Source: Nanobdellota archaeon | GTDB lineage: Archaea > Nanobdellota > Nanobdellia > Nanobdellales > Nanobdellaceae | DNA: 8,846 nt | Direction: 5' to 3' | Assembly (NCBI GenBank): GCA_020697515.1 | Contig: JAIXNB010000037.1 | Span: forward strand, 1-8,846 | Shown: positions 2,831 through 8,846 of the stretch, piece by piece | Layout of the letters: every line of letters begins with the position of its first letter | Numbering within the stretch: the first letter of the stretch is position 1 | Translations under genes and position numbers: made by a program | The notes under the pieces: generated by a model | The model's input: the letters and a program-made list of their open reading frames with translations, nothing else | Told to the model about the DNA's origin: nothing | Databases searched by the model: none

Positions 2831-2884
2831 GTGAGGTGTATATATTTTTTATTTTTGCTCCCCATTCTATTATTAGCAGGATGT
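2831..2884 (+). other. Signal peptide with lipobox (LLAG/C)
   Basis: LLLAGCTN is identical in its last six residues to the LLAGCTN of the upstream gene. Confidence 0.55.
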
Positions 2885-3721
2885 ACAAATATTCCTAATG
2901 AACCTAAACCTAAAACAAAACCTAAGGAACTTCTTATAACACCGATATATGAAATATGGCCGGATAAAATTACTGAGACTTACGCTAAAAGCTCAGGATT
3001 TTATTTCACATTTAAAGTATATAACCCGTATAATAAAACTAATTTTACTGCTTGTTTAGACTCTTTTGTTGGAAGAGAATGGAGTGTCATTGGAAAGAGA
3101 TGTATAAATGAAGAACTTGCTAAGGATACCTATAAGATATTTAGTTTACCAGTAGGTGGAAGAATAAAATTAGTATTGGGTTTAGAAAGCAAGCAAAAAT
3201 ACGAGGATGTTAGAGTAAATATATGTTATAATGCTACTCAAATCTTTATTTTAACAGGATGCGTACCGAAAAATATAGGAGAAGGTCATAATCAAGCATC
3301 CATCTGCAAATACAAGATTATCGAATCTCTAAGGGGGCCAATTAAGGTATATAGTGCTGTTATGTCCTCCAATAGAACACATTACATCTTAAGCTTTAGA
3401 CTAAAATATTTTCCTGATAACCGAACATATATATCTAGCGACTCTACGATTCTTTCAAGTAAATGTTATTTATCTTATGTGATAAAAAGTGGTGGAATAG
3501 TTGAAATACCTATAAATATTAGCTATATAACAAATACTTTGTATTTTAAATACACCAAAGTTAATGTAAGTAGTGTAGGGGAAGATATAGGAGTTACTAT
3601 AATTTTTGATAAAAATAAAGCAGGTTTGACACCGAGGGATATTATTTCTATTAAGTTAAAATTAAGTTATATTATTTTTAAACAAATGAATTTTGGAAAA
3701 ATTGTTATAGAACACTCTTAG
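2831..3721 (+). CDS. Putative lipoprotein (296 aa), paralog of the preceding gene at its signal peptide and C-terminus
   Basis: GTG is the only possible start after the in-frame stop at 2825-2827, 6 nt past the preceding stop codon. The N-terminus is MRCIYFLFLLPILLLAGC (lipobox Cys18, nt 2882-2884), followed by a Pro/Lys-rich tether (NEPKPKTKPKE). The mature part has 6 Cys and 7 N-X-S/T sequons. The C-terminal IISIKLKLSYIIFKQMNFGKIVIEHS aligns with the 346-aa protein with identical spacing. Confidence 0.7.
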   Translation: MRCIYFLFLLPILLLAGCTNIPNEPKPKTKPKELLITPIYEIWPDKITETYAKSSGFYFTFKVYNPYNKTNFTACLDSFVGREWSVIGKRCINEELAKDTYKIFSLPVGGRIKLVLGLESKQKYEDVRVNICYNATQIFILTGCVPKNIGEGHNQASICKYKIIESLRGPIKVYSAVMSSNRTHYILSFRLKYFPDNRTYISSDSTILSSKCYLSYVIKSGGIVEIPINISYITNTLYFKYTKVNVSSVGEDIGVTIIFDKNKAGLTPRDIISIKLKLSYIIFKQMNFGKIVIEHS

Positions 3722-3753: not shown

Positions 3754-4524
3754 ATGTACAAGAGAAAAGATTTCCCATGTAAAGGAGATCTTGTGCTTGG
3801 CACCGTAAAAGAAATATCTAACATAATGGTAAAGGTTGAGCTAGATGAATATGAGGATGCATATGGTATAATTCCTATAGATGAGATTTCACATAAAAGG
3901 ATAAAGAATGTTAGAGAAGTTGTAGATATTGGAAAGAAGATTGTATGTTTAGTTATGGATTCTGATCCCGCAAATCGTTTAGCAACTTTATCGTTAAAGA
4001 GAGTTTCCGAGGGACAGAAGAAACTGAAGATATATCAATACAAAAGGGAACAAACCGCATATAACTTATTGCTTCTTTTATCTGAACAAGAGAACATCCC
4101 TATAGAAACGTTGCATGAGGAAATAGTTTATAAGATACTATCCAAAGGTAGACTTTTATACCAAGTTTGGGAAGAAGCTTATATAGAAGGAGAAGCAATT
4201 CTAGAAAAATATGGAATACCTAAGAAATACGTTAATTCTCTATATAGAATAATAAAAGAGCATTTTAATGTACCAAAATATGTAAGAAAGGGATATATAG
4301 AAATGTATACATTAGCTTCGGATGGTATAGATAGATTAAAGAAAGTTCTGTTAGAATTAAAGAATATCGGTTTGGAGGTAAAGTACGCTGGGGCGCCAAG
4401 ATATTATTTTAAGTTGGAACATTATAATCCCAAAGAGTTAGATAAAACATATAGGAAGATGGAGGAAGTTGTAAGATCTATGGCCGAACATTTAGAGATA
4501 GAATATGAAATAGTAGAGGAATGA
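3754..4524 (+). CDS. eif2a: Translation initiation factor aIF-2 alpha subunit
   Basis: The N-terminal S1/OB domain (GDLVLGTVKEI...VKVELDEY..AYGIIPIDEIS.KRIKNVREVVDIGKKIVCLVMDSDP....TLSLKRV) closely follows the aIF2-alpha/eIF2-alpha pattern. The length of 256 aa is typical, and the gene is followed by nop10, as is common in archaea. Confidence 0.93.
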   Translation: MYKRKDFPCKGDLVLGTVKEISNIMVKVELDEYEDAYGIIPIDEISHKRIKNVREVVDIGKKIVCLVMDSDPANRLATLSLKRVSEGQKKLKIYQYKREQTAYNLLLLLSEQENIPIETLHEEIVYKILSKGRLLYQVWEEAYIEGEAILEKYGIPKKYVNSLYRIIKEHFNVPKYVRKGYIEMYTLASDGIDRLKKVLLELKNIGLEVKYAGAPRYYFKLEHYNPKELDKTYRKMEEVVRSMAEHLEIEYEIVEE

Positions 4525-4697
4525 AAGAAATAAGGAAGTGTCCTAAATGTAGAATATATACCTTTAGAGAGATATGTCCCCGATGTAACAACAAAACTAA
4601 TAGAGCAATTCCTCCCAAATTCTCTCCAGAAGATCCTTGGGGGAAGTATCGTAGAAAGATGAAAAGAAAGCTTTTAGAAAAAAAAGGTTGGTTATAA
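4521..4697 (+). CDS. nop10: H/ACA RNP component Nop10 (58 aa); absent from the supplied ORF track
   Basis: Manual translation gives MKEIRKCPKCRIYTFREICPRCNNKTNRAIPPKFSPEDPWGKYRRKMKRKLLEKKGWL. It has the CxxC...CxxC zinc ribbon and the PP(K/R)FSPEDP.G.YRR signature of archaeal Nop10. The ATG overlaps the aIF2-alpha stop (ATGA at 4521-4524), and the TAA lies at 4695-4697. Confidence 0.9.
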   Translation: MKEIRKCPKCRIYTFREICPRCNNKTNRAIPPKFSPEDPWGKYRRKMKRKLLEKKGWL

Positions 4698-4701
4698 TTA
4701 G

Positions 4702-5475
4702 ATGCTGGAGGTAATTACTCATAAAGAAATTGAAATATACAAGCCTATTTTGATTTATGGAGTAGGGGGAGGAATGGGTAATGTTGCTAAGTTAGTAGGG
4801 AGAAAGATAATAAAAACATTTAAAGCGAAATTGTATAGTACTTACCTAATAGATGCTTTTCCAGATATAGTATATTCAGATAAAAAAGGAGTCTTAAGAG
4901 TATTAAAATTAGATCTATATTATTTTAATTTCAAAAATAGAGATTTTTTAGTACTCTATGGAGACGTCCAGCCGAACGCGCAACCTTTAGATGTCCCAGC
5001 AAGATTTACATTCTCTAGGGCTTTCTTGAAATTTCTAAAAGAAAATAATTCAAAGTTAATAATCTCTGTTGGAGGATATGGTATAGAGATAGAGCCCGAA
5101 GACCCAAAACTATACTTTGCAGCAAATAACAAAAAAGTATTAAGGAGACTTAAAAAAATTCTAAAGGAAGACTTTAATTTATATACAGAGAATAATATTG
5201 TGGGGCTTTCAGGATTATTAGTATCTCTAGCGAGATTCTACAAAATTCCTGCATTTATAACTTTAGCAGAAACATATCCGACAATTAATATAAATGGATA
5301 TCTTGGTGCTAAAAAGATTATTGAGTCATTAAATAAATTATTTGGTTTTAATATAGAACTAAAGGACTATGAAGAAAAGGGCAAAAAGGTCAGAGAGAGT
5401 ATATTAAAGCATATAAAGTATGCAAAAGGAAGAAAGCCGCCAGAAAAAAGAAAGGATATCTACTATTTTGGGTGA
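4702..5475 (+). CDS. PAC2-family proteasome assembly chaperone-like protein (COG1938-type)
   Basis: Starts 4 nt after the nop10 stop. The N-terminal KPILIYGVGGGMGNVAKLVG pattern and later LISVGGYG / VGLSGLL segments resemble archaeal PAC2/PbaA-PbaB family proteins. The position after aIF2-alpha and nop10 matches the conserved archaeal neighbourhood. Called from memory of the family pattern, not from a search. Confidence 0.7.
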   Translation: MLEVITHKEIEIYKPILIYGVGGGMGNVAKLVGRKIIKTFKAKLYSTYLIDAFPDIVYSDKKGVLRVLKLDLYYFNFKNRDFLVLYGDVQPNAQPLDVPARFTFSRAFLKFLKENNSKLIISVGGYGIEIEPEDPKLYFAANNKKVLRRLKKILKEDFNLYTENNIVGLSGLLVSLARFYKIPAFITLAETYPTININGYLGAKKIIESLNKLFGFNIELKDYEEKGKKVRESILKHIKYAKGRKPPEKRKDIYYFG

Positions 5476-5492
5476 GCCTGATAAATCTTTAT

Positions 5493-5960
5493 TTATTGTT
5501 TCCTTTTAAATTCAGGTTTTGATTTAAATTGTTGGGCTAGCCTTGGTGCAACTTTCTCTAGATGATGCAGTAGCAATTGATTTTTAGCGTTAAGATCATT
5601 AATTACTGTAGTAAGTTGAAGTATCCTAGCTGATATCGCATTTAGCATATTATTCAACTCATCCTTTGTAAACTCTATTTTTTTTATTCCTTCAATTTCT
5701 ATGTGGGATGGGGAGAACATTAATATAAAGTCTAATAGCGATTGAAAATCTTTTGGAGATCCCTCTAATTCCAAAAAGCTAGACCACATTTTAATTTTCT
5801 TACCATTAACCTCTATTTCTCTTTCTATAGGTTCCTCTATTTTATAGTTCGTTATTTCTAAACCCTCAAACTGTTTTATATCTTCTAATAGTTTATTTAA
5901 AAATTGTGTAATAAAATCTTTTGGAGATCCAAGAGCTTCAAAGAAAAATCTCGCCTTCAT
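5493..5960 (-). CDS. Uncharacterised 155-aa protein with an internal duplication and a C-terminal coiled-coil/basic tail
   Basis: The start overlaps the L44e stop (ATGA on the minus strand, 5957-5960). Two copies of beta-strand + GSPKDF + helix are present (FFFEALGSPKDFITQFLNKLL and SFLELEGSPKDFQSLLDFILMF). The C-terminal heptad-like segment is NNMLNAISARILQLTTVINDLNAKNQLLLHHLEK, followed by KSKPEFKRKQ. The protein has no Cys and no recognised family. Confidence 0.6.
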   Translation of the reverse strand: MKARFFFEALGSPKDFITQFLNKLLEDIKQFEGLEITNYKIEEPIEREIEVNGKKIKMWSSFLELEGSPKDFQSLLDFILMFSPSHIEIEGIKKIEFTKDELNNMLNAISARILQLTTVINDLNAKNQLLLHHLEKVAPRLAQQFKSKPEFKRKQ

Positions 5961-6274
5961 TTTCTAATAGCAGATACAAATTCCACTTTCTTATACCTCC
6001 CTTCTATTCTCCACACGTGTTTTCTTCTACATTGCATACATTCAACTCTTAAATCAACACCTTTAGACACCTTAAACACCCCTCTTTTTCTCTGGTTTAG
6101 TGGTCTTTTACTATATTTACCATGATTTCCCTTCCCTTTTTTTCCTTCCCTAGCCTTTCTAGCACCCCATGAAAGTCCTGTTCTCTGCTTGGAAGGCTTA
6201 ACTATTATTACTGTGTGTTCTGTGTGGGTTTTACAGACTGGACAATATTTTTTTACAGTTCTCGGGATTTTCAT
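5957..6274 (-). CDS. rpl44e: Large-subunit ribosomal protein L44e (eL42)
   Basis: MKIPRTVKKYCPVCKTHTEHTV...GKGNHGKYSKRP...ECMQCRRKH shows the split CxxC...CxxC zinc ribbon and the GxxGKxSK core typical of L44e. The length (105 aa) and basic composition also fit. Confidence 0.93.
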   Translation of the reverse strand: MKIPRTVKKYCPVCKTHTEHTVIIVKPSKQRTGLSWGARKAREGKKGKGNHGKYSKRPLNQRKRGVFKVSKGVDLRVECMQCRRKHVWRIEGRYKKVEFVSAIRK

Positions 6275-6299
6275 TCACCAAAATTACATTATAAAGTTT

Positions 6300-6911
6300 T
6301 TATCCTTTTCTCATTTTTATTTCTTCACATATATTTAAAGATAACATTCTTTTCGCAATTTCTTTAGGCAATGTGTATATCTCTTCGGGATTGAAGGGAC
6401 CATATATCTTTCCATCAGGACCAACAATTTGAGAAAATTCTTTTGTAAATATAACTAGAACTTTGTTTATTCTCTTTGTTCTTTTTTCCATCAGTGGTTT
6501 AACATCTTCGAATAGTTTATTTATTTCTGGAGGCTCTCCTAAAAATATATTTTCCAAAACATGTTTATAATACCCCCTTAACAATGCGGATACCACATCA
6601 AATAATATTCTCTCTTCTCTAGTCATATCATTTCTCTCAGCTATCTTTATATTCTCCTTCGCCTCGAATAAAGCTAGATTAATTAGTTTCTCTAGTCTAA
6701 TGTTAACAATTTGTTTTATGAGCTCCTTTAGGTTCTCTAACTCTAACTTTAACCTTTTATGTTCTTCATCTTCTTCTCCTAATTCAAGAAATCTTTTATA
6801 TCTTTTTATCATATCTGAAACACGTTTATAAAATTGTTCTTCAAGTGGTTCTAACTTATTTTTCATCCTTTTTTCTCTTTCATAGACTGCAAAAATATCA
6901 GAAATATCCAT
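6300..6911 (-). CDS. gins51: GINS subunit, Gins51/Gins15 (Sld5/Psf1-like) family
   Basis: The N-terminal A-domain pattern is MDI..I....E.....L.PL.E.FY.RV...I...........E.......LE..N....I...VNIRLEKLINLA. The C-terminal B-domain pattern VLVIFTKEFSQIVGPDGKIYGPFNPEEIYTLPKEIAKRMLSLNICEEI resembles the (V.FL.D.P.FVG.D...YGP....D...LP...A..L......EEI) pattern of archaeal Gins51. This is pattern recognition only. Confidence 0.6.
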   Translation of the reverse strand: MDISDIFAVYEREKRMKNKLEPLEEQFYKRVSDMIKRYKRFLELGEEDEEHKRLKLELENLKELIKQIVNIRLEKLINLALFEAKENIKIAERNDMTREERILFDVVSALLRGYYKHVLENIFLGEPPEINKLFEDVKPLMEKRTKRINKVLVIFTKEFSQIVGPDGKIYGPFNPEEIYTLPKEIAKRMLSLNICEEIKMRKG

Positions 6912-6923
6912 GGGGTATTATAG

Positions 6924-6931
6924 TTTTAAAA
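6924..6931. promoter_or_regulatory. Palindromic TATA-like box TTTTAAAA in the divergent gins51 / reverse gyrase region
   Basis: It is centred about 27 nt upstream of ATG 6955 (the reverse gyrase start preferred here) and about 17 nt from the gins51 ATG (6911, minus strand). The sequence is its own reverse complement, so it could be read in both directions. Confidence 0.35.
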
Positions 6932-6954
6932 TGATAAGTACGTTACACATGATT

Positions 6955-8709
6955 ATGTATCTGTATATAAAACAAGGATGTTTTAATTGTCAAAATACTA
7001 TATATTCTGAGAGACTAAGGCATAGTGTTCCCTGTGAGAGAGATATTGATGATGAAGCTTATTTTGATGTAATTCAAAAGTTTCATGATAAAGAATCATT
7101 ATACGAGTATTTATATATGTATCTAAATAGAGAAGGAAGGCTTTTTAAGTTTAAGGAGTTGTATGATCTACACAAAGCTACAAGAGATTTCATTAGTTTC
7201 TTTCTGAAAATTTTGGATTCTGAACCGTGGTCCATACAAATAACTTGGTTTAAAAGATTGTATAACAAATTCTCATTCTCAATGATAGCTCCAACAGGAA
7301 CAGGGAAGACCACTTTTATAGCAGTATCCTCGATCTATTTCTCCTCAAAGTTAAATAAGAAGATCTATATAGTATTACCGACAACAGTTCTTGTAGAACA
7401 AGTGTATGAACGAATTGTTCAATTTGTAGAGAAAATAGACACTTCTCTAAATGTTGTTGCATATCTTAGAAAGAACAAAAAGGAAGCTAAAGAAAGAATA
7501 ATCAAGGGAGAATTTGATATACTTATAACATCTAATCAATTTTTGTCTAGGAATTTTGATATACTTAAAGATAAAAAATTTGATATAATCTTTGTTGATG
7601 ATGTAGATGCATTCTTCAAAGGATCTAAAAATATAGAGAGAGTTCTAATCCTCTTGGGGTTTACAGATGAAGATATAAATACCGCTTATGAGATGATAAA
7701 AGCTAAAAGGCAAGGAGATTTTGAATTGGTAAAGAAACTTAATGAAAAGTTAGAAAAAGTAAAATCCAAACCTCATGGAATATTAATATTATCTTCAGCT
7801 ACCGGAAGGATTCGTGGAACAAGGACAAAGTTATATAGAGAACTTTTGAATTTCACGGCAGGAACAGGTACTACCAAAATTAGAAATATAATTGATACAT
7901 ATGTACTGCCTAAACAGGATTTAAAGATCGAAGTATATAAATTGGTGAATCTTTTAGGGGACGGAATAGTTATATTTGTTACTAGAGAACAAGGAGTGAA
8001 GTTTGCAAAGGAACTTTATGAATTTTTGAGGGATAGAAATGTCAGAGCAGGTATAGTTGTATCTGAAATCAAAGGAAGTACAGAGAACATCAAAAAGTTT
8101 GCTAATAAAGAATTAAATGTCCTTATAGGTATTGCACACTTCTATGGATTATTGGTTAGAGGGTTAGATCTACCTACTAGAGTTAAATATGTTATATTCA
8201 CAGGAATTCCTAAAATAAGAATTAACTTAACTAGAAAAGAGAGGAATGCTAACAATTTGATGATACTTGCAAACATACTTTTAGATATCTTACCACAAGA
8301 TCGATCTAGAGAACTAAAAATATTATTAAGAAAACTCCAAAGAGCTTTTAGGAGGCTGTCTTCAGAAGCTTTTAGGGTACTATCTGAAAGCTTTGAGCGA
8401 GGGACATCAATTGATGGTTGGTTGGAAAATCTTAGACAACAATTAGAAAGGTTGTACAATATTGTATCAGAAATATTAGATAAAGAGGATATTATTGAGA
8501 AATTAAAGAACCATCCAGATGTTAGTATAACAATTTCTAATGGAGATATTTGGTTAAACTTACCGGATATAAAAACCTACATACAAGCATCTGGAAGGAG
8601 CTCTAGATTATATGCAGGGGGTATTACTAAAGGTTTAAGTATCATACTAGTCGATGATGAAAAACTGTTGAGAAGTTTGGAGAGAAAGATGAAACTATAT
8701 TTTGATTAA
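6955..8709 (+). CDS. rgy: Reverse gyrase, N-terminal helicase-like half only (split reverse gyrase)
   Basis: The maximal ORF begins at 6910. ATG 6955 (or 6949) is preferred because reverse gyrases start a few residues before the zinc finger (here CFNC-x14-CERD) and a TATA-like box lies about 27 nt upstream. Diagnostic reverse gyrase motifs: F..FF......PW.IQ..W.KR......FS.IAPTGTGKTTF (Walker A at 7288-7314), ILITSNQFLSRN, FDIIFVDDVDAFFKGSKNIERVLILLGF (motif II near 7594-7608), ILILSSATG, FRELLNF-like LYRELLNFTAG, LNVLIGIAHFYGLLVRGLDLPTRVKYVIFTGIPK, and YIQASGRSSRLYAGGITKGLSIILVDDEKL (motif VI at 8584-8607). The ORF ends 40 aa after motif VI, with no Toprim/topoisomerase IA domain. Confidence 0.9.
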   Translation: MYLYIKQGCFNCQNTIYSERLRHSVPCERDIDDEAYFDVIQKFHDKESLYEYLYMYLNREGRLFKFKELYDLHKATRDFISFFLKILDSEPWSIQITWFKRLYNKFSFSMIAPTGTGKTTFIAVSSIYFSSKLNKKIYIVLPTTVLVEQVYERIVQFVEKIDTSLNVVAYLRKNKKEAKERIIKGEFDILITSNQFLSRNFDILKDKKFDIIFVDDVDAFFKGSKNIERVLILLGFTDEDINTAYEMIKAKRQGDFELVKKLNEKLEKVKSKPHGILILSSATGRIRGTRTKLYRELLNFTAGTGTTKIRNIIDTYVLPKQDLKIEVYKLVNLLGDGIVIFVTREQGVKFAKELYEFLRDRNVRAGIVVSEIKGSTENIKKFANKELNVLIGIAHFYGLLVRGLDLPTRVKYVIFTGIPKIRINLTRKERNANNLMILANILLDILPQDRSRELKILLRKLQRAFRRLSSEAFRVLSESFERGTSIDGWLENLRQQLERLYNIVSEILDKEDIIEKLKNHPDVSITISNGDIWLNLPDIKTYIQASGRSSRLYAGGITKGLSIILVDDEKLLRSLERKMKLYFD

Positions 8710-8735
8710 AGCATAGTTGATATAATTCAGTCGCC

Positions 8736-8807
8736 AGTTAACAATATGTTAAATAGATGTTAACACCATGTTAACTAATGTTAACATAATCTATGAAGGT
8801 TGTTAAA
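8736..8807. repeat. Helically phased array of (A/T)GTTAA(C/A) boxes (four GTTAAC palindromes plus two GTTAAA variants)
   Basis: The boxes are AGTTAAC 8736-8742, ATGTTAAA 8746-8753, ATGTTAAC 8757-8764, ATGTTAAC 8768-8775, ATGTTAAC 8778-8785 and TGTTAAA 8801-8807. The spacing of box starts is 10, 11, 11 and 10 bp, then about 22 bp. By eye, only one other GTTAAC occurs in the remaining 8.7 kb (6702-6707, inside the gins51 CDS). Confidence 0.7.
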
Positions 8808-8846
8808 ATATTAAGGGCAGGATATCCTAAGGATATATATTATTAA

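Follow-up and report, generated by a model that had tools for sequence, protein, structure and literature searches.

Helicase half of a probable two-subunit reverse gyrase from an uncultured member of the Nanoarchaeota

Introduction

The textbook case of a split reverse gyrase is that of Nanoarchaeum equitans, reportedly described by Waters and colleagues in 2003. According to PMC4117796 and PMC8185306, which cite Capp et al. 2010, this enzyme is composed of a helicase subunit and a topoisomerase subunit. The reverse-gyrase splits of N. equitans and of Candidatus Nanobsidianus stetteri (Nst1) are listed as lying at the “same site” (Podar et al. 2013, PMC3655853, Table 1), and the split common to both was shown to be older than their divergence (PMC3655853). 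Here we analyzed an archaeal DNA stretch of 8,846 nucleotides (nt; contig JAIXNB010000037.1 of assembly GCA_020697515.1, in the following called the window), which carries a stand-alone gene for the helicase half of a reverse gyrase. We conclude that the protein encoded here is very probably the helicase partner in a heterodimeric reverse gyrase from an uncultured member of the Nanoarchaeota, in which a fused gene was cut once and both pieces were kept.

Results

The window encodes the helicase half of a reverse gyrase

An open reading frame (ORF) of 599 amino acids (aa) lies on the plus strand of the window. It matched the NCBIfam equivalog TIGR01054 “reverse gyrase” with an E-value of 1.1e-155 and 520.1 bits (cut-off 471.7), but the match was restricted to positions 6–556 of the 1172 model positions. 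Pfam assigned DEAD, ResIII and Helicase_C domains and a sub-threshold zf_Rg to the protein encoded at 6910–8709, and gave no Toprim or Topoisom_bac match in it. The top PDB sequence matches were the reverse gyrases of Thermotoga maritima and Archaeoglobus fulgidus (E-value 3e-76), with residues 22–596 of the window protein aligning to residues 9–504 of the 1104-aa T. maritima enzyme (4ddt/7fsf). The ORF and its helicase motifs are arranged as follows:

6910–8709, plus strand: helicase subunit of the probable two-subunit reverse gyrase, annotated ORF (TIGR01054, PDB matches, AlphaFold and Foldseek)
7288–7311, plus strand: helicase motif I (Walker A), APTGTGKT, aa 127–134 (sequence and alignment)
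7597–7608, plus strand: helicase motif II, DDVD, aa 230–233 (sequence and alignment)
7795–7803, plus strand: helicase motif III, SAT, aa 296–298 (sequence)
8584–8607, plus strand: helicase motif VI, QASGRSSR, aa 559–566 (sequence and PDB alignment)

The superfamily 2 (SF2) motifs I, II, III and VI are all intact. Their core residues are invariant or nearly so in an alignment of 46 homologs, in which the motif I core residues P128, T129, G130 and K133 are invariant. An AlphaFold model of the protein reached a mean predicted local distance difference test score (pLDDT) of 86.9 and is closed by a clean C-terminal helix at aa 584–598. In a Foldseek comparison with the PDB, ranks 1–11 were all reverse gyrases (E-values of 6e-34 to 2e-22), whereas generic DEAD-box helicases ranked below them at E-values of about 1e-10. 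The window protein also has an insert at the latch position, and both this insert and the C-terminal helix correspond to elements that, in fused enzymes, lie against the topoisomerase module. The ORF encodes the reverse-gyrase helicase half alone. This agrees with the initial annotation, which had been made from the sequence without database searches and had noted both the full set of helicase signatures and the stand-alone character of the half.

The reading frame ends before the Toprim domain

The ORF terminates 33 aa past the last residue of motif VI, or 41 aa from its first residue, close to the 40 aa estimated at the outset. After the TYIQ sequence that leads into motif VI, 44 aa are left, and the distance from TYIQ to the Toprim start IVESPxKA is 74–87 aa in four fused enzymes. 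The window ORF hence ends about 30–45 residues short of the Toprim start of fused enzymes. Two features describe the end of the gene and the region behind it:

8659–8709, plus strand: C-terminal helix (aa 584–598) and TAA stop codon, the split junction (concatenated alignment, model, other assemblies)
8710–8846, no strand assigned: spacer without coding sequence that separates the helicase half from tmcA (stops in all frames; the longer contig L001 continues identically into tmcA)

Plus-frame stops are located at 8707 (TAA), 8714 and 8718, and the ORF’s own frame stops again at 8761. The window is 99.95–99.98% identical to contigs of three other assemblies, ENA ERZ27236680, ENA ERZ23486682 and an NCBI metagenome-assembled genome (MAG), all with the same stop. 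Its protein is identical to HIP90123.1, annotated as “reverse gyrase [Candidatus Nanopusillus sp.]”, from MAG GCA_015662215.1. On the longer contigs L001 and L002, the helicase half is followed by a spacer of 167 bp and then by tmcA on the same strand, which encodes a 788-aa TmcA-type RNA cytidine acetyltransferase. According to the L001 sequence, the tmcA ATG lies at about nt 8877, 31 nt past the end of the window. A tblastn search with two topoisomerase halves against all helicase-bearing contigs returned only noise (E-values of at least 0.68), and no topoisomerase-like coding was found in 16 kb downstream on the longer contigs. Because the stop recurs in three other assemblies and the longer contigs continue through a spacer into tmcA, the stop in the window ORF is no artefact. 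The three expectations raised before, namely that no frame stays open downstream, that no topoisomerase IA domain can be reached there and that the stop is not an assembly error, were thus borne out.

The topoisomerase half lies on a separate contig

With a profile built from the C-terminal halves of three fused enzymes, we detected a stand-alone Toprim/topoisomerase IA protein of 633 aa (P0208) on a complete genome of 773 kb that also bears a stand-alone helicase half. A search with P0208 then yielded a family of stand-alone topoisomerase halves of 629–664 aa in Nanoarchaeota. Among these, P0222, with 664 aa and Toprim and Topoisom_bac domains, is the topoisomerase half of the window’s organism:

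3524–5518 of contig L007: topoisomerase half P0222, on a separate contig

P0222 is located on separate contigs of both ENA assemblies that contain the helicase half at 100% identity. Its Toprim domain retains the acidic cluster, and the second zinc finger (CLECG...CPICG) and the active-site sequence ITYHRTDS are kept as well. Its 90% cluster includes HIP90569.1, which is 100% identical to P0222 aa 1–448, and HIP90378.1, which is 99% identical to aa 439–664. The latter carries the locus tag EYH22_02385, with the prefix EYH22 of the window genes, and both entries belong to the HIP90xxx accession series of the window’s own MAG. The two entries are a single gene cut by a contig break in the MAG. 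The search for a topoisomerase half elsewhere in the source genome, as recommended in the initial annotation, was therefore successful.

The topoisomerase halves of the window lineage and of its relative at 56% identity (657–664 aa) additionally possess a basic C-terminal tail of about 30 extra residues (...GFGSGKRGEFRKYKKS), which is absent from the 633–635-aa orthologs of other Nanoarchaeota.

The split point is shared within the Nanoarchaeota

We joined the helicase and topoisomerase halves of five lineages (the window lineage, GCA_053994055.1, YN1, Nanobdella and Nanoclepta) end to end and aligned them with fused enzymes. All five aligned without gap or overlap and shared one junction column. 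The join of the window lineage is ...KMKLYFD | MSFELKNLSEVDIEK..., compared with ...RQMRWRFT EFKMVPFEELDIDEV... in a Thermococcus enzyme. The lineages with this junction column span 47–56% identity to the window protein. The join is the same on the closest fused relative (P0081, 42% identical to the window protein), where the match of the window protein ends at residue 427 and that of P0222 begins at 429. We considered whether P0081 might itself be a fused nanoarchaeal-like enzyme and rejected this in view of its G+C content of 46% and its greatest similarity, which is to the Thermococcus enzyme.

In the GTDB species representatives, every complete nanoarchaeal gene (12/12), including that of Nst1 (L031), stops 41–42 aa after the Q of motif VI. 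The non-nanoarchaeal relatives that we checked continue into Toprim in 11 of 11 cases, with lengths of 1240–1318 aa, and we found none with a fused form above 42% identity. In public data we counted about 65 clusters of stand-alone helicase halves of 569–596 aa; those with names belong to Nanoclepta, Nanobsidianus, Nanobdella, Nanopusillaceae and one MAG labeled Aenigmatarchaeota.

Because the junction column and, as detailed below, the flanking genes are the same across the Nanoarchaeota, the comparison indicates that the split was inherited and did not arise independently in this lineage. Of the two origins left open at first, the N. equitans-type split stands and an independent occurrence does not, the source being an uncultured relative (NCBI: Candidatus Nanopusillus sp.) with shared junction and flanks. 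Alignment with full-length enzymes, also suggested then, placed the breakpoint in a single column without gap or overlap.

Both halves occupy conserved neighborhoods

Upstream of the helicase half, in divergent orientation, lies a gene for a GINS subunit:

6300–6911, minus strand: divergent GINS subunit gene (Gins51 type), part of the conserved flank GINS (minus), helicase half (plus), tmcA (plus)

The order GINS, helicase half, tmcA is found in the window lineage, in relatives at 65% and 56% identity, in YN1 and in Nanoclepta. In the lineages compared, the topoisomerase half is always located 3′ of the genes for aS21 and EF-1beta, with an L7Ae gene slightly beyond. Its ATG overlaps the EF-1beta stop codon in the window lineage, YN1 and Nanobdella. 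The topoisomerase half is probably carried on a translation-gene operon. In the complete YN1 genome (AP031373.1) one strand bears both halves, separated by about 119 kb. Based on gene spacing and TATA-like boxes, the two halves appear to be made from separate transcription units. Wherever both halves were sought, in five nanoarchaeal lineages and the complete YN1 genome, both were kept.

The GINS gene belongs to a cluster at 3754–6911 that further comprises aIF-2alpha, Nop10, PAC2, an MJ0538-family gene and L44e. A replication/translation supercluster with GINS beside L44E, S27E, aIF-2alpha and Nop10 has been described (Berthon et al. 2008, PMC2643942), and the cluster in the window is a variant of it with the MJ0538-family gene in the place of S27E. 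Farther upstream, 1784–2824 and 2831–3721 (and also 398–1723) encode consecutive hypothetical proteins without a Pfam match. Two of them start with a hydrophobic stretch ending in the lipobox-like LLAGCTN, and these may be surface lipoproteins of an episymbiont.

On the downstream side, contig L001 carries a contiguous tRNA-Glu(TTC) gene at 5557–5631 and, at 5669–8035, TmcA as a single 788-aa protein. The tRNA-Glu genes of N. equitans are trans-joined from halves, and a P-loop ATPase-acetyltransferase is listed among its split proteins (Podar et al. 2013, PMC3655853, Table 1). We infer that the latter is a TmcA homolog; if so, the window lineage would be less fragmented than N. equitans.

Start codon and N-terminal zinc finger

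The annotated start of the 599-aa ORF overlaps the divergent GINS start by 2 nt. In all five closest homologs the N-terminus is MYLYI..., which equals Met16 (nt 6955) here, and residues 1–14 are disordered in the AlphaFold model with pLDDT values below 50. The true start is therefore probably Met16 at nt 6955, giving a product of 584 aa, and the annotation would be 15 codons too long. Close to this start lies one further feature:

6979–7044, plus strand: N-terminal zinc-finger region, aa 24–45, C-x2-C-x14-C-x2-D (Pfam zf_Rg, pattern)

Pfam zf_Rg scored 21.1 bits on the window protein against a cut-off of 25.5. The fourth Cys of the finger is replaced by Asp, and CxxC-x14-CxxD is present in every nanoarchaeal helicase half that we read; P0076 and P0089, both fused reverse gyrases, show CxxC...CxxC instead. 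Asp is a possible fourth zinc ligand in this first finger.

A phased repeat array in the spacer

The spacer behind the helicase half contains a block of repeated motifs:

8737–8838, no strand assigned: 102-bp block with six GTTAA(C/A) motifs at 8737–8807, full site TGTTAACA (motif count, spacing)

The full site is palindromic, and the motifs take the forms TGTTAAC and TGTTAAA. Their spacings are 11, 11, 11, 10 and 22 bp. Four exact GTTAAC sites fall within 50 bp, compared with about three expected over the whole window. Repeats had been noted in this region from the beginning, which was correct, but the array is more than low-complexity sequence, being structured and phased at 11 bp. The block is repeated at 100% identity 3.85 kb downstream, after trm1 (L001 4229–4330), a second copy shown by one assembly only. 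Contigs of two assemblies stop within the block, a frequent occurrence at true repeats. A TATA-like box of tmcA is placed 3′ of the block.

The same spacer contains 12 motif copies in the relative at 86% identity, 17 in the relative at 65% identity, 11 in YN1 and eight in Nst1. Across 16 nanoarchaeal loci, the spacer is the densest motif cluster in 13, with arrays of 4–17 copies compared with 0.2–0.6 expected; examples are L018 2043–2150, L019 8745–9022 and L024 4750–5010. The array is absent from the spacer in L020 and Nanobdella. A spacing of 11 bp is the most common (33/107), and 21–22 and 32–34 bp are common as well. Whether GTTAAC-type elements also flank the topoisomerase half, a question posed in the initial annotation, was answered in the negative, with no GTTAAC in 9.6 kb around that gene.

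An RNA gene in the spacer was considered and rejected: six loci gave no Rfam match at gathering or E-value thresholds, and no tRNA was found in the spacer. By eye, no C/D box motifs were seen there. The palindromic repeats account for the folding z-scores of −1.4 to −3.3. A metagenome scan with the pattern ATGTTAAC-N3-ATGTTAAC-N2-ATGTTAAC gave eight loci, among them two of low G+C (L010 1456–1500 and L015 9394–9440) with four ATGTTAACTC-type repeats 10–11 bp apart. We rejected a nanoarchaeal origin of these two, which lie next to genes for a sigma-70 factor and an HTH_3 protein and whose adjacent 365-aa ORF is unrelated to Trm1, and judged them to be unrelated bacterial or phage DNA. Phased GTTAAC arrays thus also occur outside the Nanoarchaeota.

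The spacer array seems most likely to be a phased protein-binding array. Its core TAAC-N5-GTTA may resemble the operator of the heat-shock regulator Phr. That the array is functional in protein binding, as an operator or as a centromere-like or iteron-like site, is possible, and on balance we consider it unlikely. If functional, it might control tmcA, the helicase half or both, which are plausibly tied to growth at high temperature, and it would possibly have marked the place where reverse gyrase was split from the nanoarchaeal ancestor onward.

Discussion

The arrangement described here is already known, and the window adds a lineage, not a concept. In the scenario that we favor, a helicase subunit composed of the zinc finger, the RecA-like domains H1 and H2 and the latch insert would derive from an ancestral fused gene that underwent a single cut in the last ancestor common to the sampled Nanoarchaeota. 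This cut would have fallen at the start of the linker helix that connects H2 to the Toprim domain. The helicase piece would have remained between the GINS gene and tmcA and the topoisomerase piece would have been placed in the cluster of aS21 and EF-1beta. The two proteins are then expected to associate non-covalently and to introduce positive supercoils in an ATP-dependent manner, in line with the biochemistry reported for the N. equitans pair NEQ434/NEQ318 (Capp et al. 2010, cited in PMC4117796). The domain content, the split point, the intact partner gene and the inheritance of the split are results of the present analysis, and the assembly and activity of the pair are inferred.

Some points weigh against this scenario or parts of it. 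In the window’s own MAG, the topoisomerase half is present only as two contig-end fragments. Binding and supercoiling by this particular pair are argued from homology to N. equitans, and the identity of the split site with that of N. equitans rests on Nst1 (L031), which was tested directly, and on the table in PMC3655853. Moreover, metal binding by the N-terminal zinc finger is not assured, given the Asp in place of the fourth Cys and the Pfam score below the cut-off.

The window originates from a metagenome assembly, and in A. camini two adjacent out-of-frame ORFs occur (PMC6878951, “Split RG Sequences”), both of which would be compatible with a stop that is a sequencing or assembly error or with a recent pseudogene of a fused reverse gyrase. 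The probability of such an explanation is practically negligible, considering the identical stop in three other assemblies, the recurrence of this stop position in 12 further species of Nanoarchaeota, the conservation of all helicase motifs, and a downstream region in which a spacer and tmcA follow and 16 kb are devoid of topoisomerase-like coding. A genuine split could still have arisen independently here and resemble that of N. equitans by convergence, all the more as lineage-specific gene splits exist in the Nanoarchaeota besides shared ones (PMC3655853). We regard this as highly improbable, since five lineages at 47–56% identity to the window protein use a single junction column, the flanks GINS, helicase, tmcA and aS21, EF-1beta, topoisomerase are both conserved, and the relatives above 42% identity yielded no fused form.

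Another possibility is that the halves are joined again to a single-chain enzyme, by a split intein or by trans-splicing of mRNA. The split DNA polymerase I of N. equitans is healed by a split intein. Podar et al. 2013 (PMC3655853, Table 1) name DNA polymerase I as a split gene of this organism, which also trans-splices tRNA halves (PMC3491384). For the reverse gyrase, however, joining is extremely improbable: the ends ...KLYFD and MSFELKNL... align to contiguous residues of fused enzymes with no extra residues, which leaves no room for intein halves, the window protein has no Pfam match to an intein domain, and the N. equitans enzyme is described as a heterodimer of two subunits (PMC4117796). 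It is also conceivable that the helicase half has become independent, for example as a stand-alone SF2 helicase near replication genes, with the GINS neighbor and the apparent lack of co-transcription of the halves pointing in this direction. The separate N. equitans subunits, reportedly found by Capp and colleagues in 2010 to have partial activities each, could be counted in its favor. Yet both halves are retained together wherever both were sought, the catalytic motifs of the topoisomerase half are intact, and the helicase half has preserved the latch insert and C-terminal helix, the elements next to the topoisomerase module in fused enzymes, making an independent role very unlikely. We therefore favor the heterodimeric reverse gyrase over these alternatives.

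With about 31% G+C and known from metagenomes only, the window lineage is one more lineage supporting a single split event kept throughout the Nanoarchaeota, and the split is thus a dependable marker for the taxonomy of this group. The diverged natural subunit pairs form a set for studying how the modules recognize one another when no covalent bond connects them. Our picture of reverse gyrase and of the Nanoarchaeota does not change, and the phased array beside the gene is the sole open lead.

Comparison with known reverse gyrases

Monomeric reverse gyrases such as those of T. maritima (4DDT/4DDU) and A. fulgidus (1GKU) share the family and fold of the helicase module with the window protein. 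In contrast to it, their single chain of 1050–1100 aa runs on into the Toprim and topoisomerase IA domains. Methanopyrus kandleri also has a naturally split, heterodimeric reverse gyrase, but there the topoisomerase domain itself is cut (PMC4117796, PMC8185306), whereas in the window the cut lies between the two modules. With a cut of the M. kandleri type, the first subunit has the helicase together with a part of the topoisomerase; since neither Toprim nor topoisomerase sequence is present in the window protein, this type does not apply here.

The nearest counterparts are Nst1 (Candidatus Nanobsidianus stetteri, Nst 337–402), Nanobdella aerobiophila, Nanoclepta minutus and Nanoarchaeota archaeon YN1, which have the same junction column and the same flanks at both loci. 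Their helicase halves measure 578–590 aa and their topoisomerase halves 633–634 aa, and their helicase halves are only 46–54% identical to that of the window. The G+C content is 31% in the window lineage compared with 22–25% in most terrestrial relatives.

In N. equitans, NEQ434 (helicase) and NEQ318 (topoisomerase) are likewise two genes at distant loci, cut between the modules, with a heterodimer as the active form (PMC4117796). N. equitans is a different organism from that of the window, and the comparison is indirect, via Nst1 and the table in PMC3655853. The surroundings of the helicase gene differ: in the window a phased TGTTAAC array follows the gene, whereas NEQ434 is flanked by C/D box small RNA genes, to which the array, if functional, would be a parallel.

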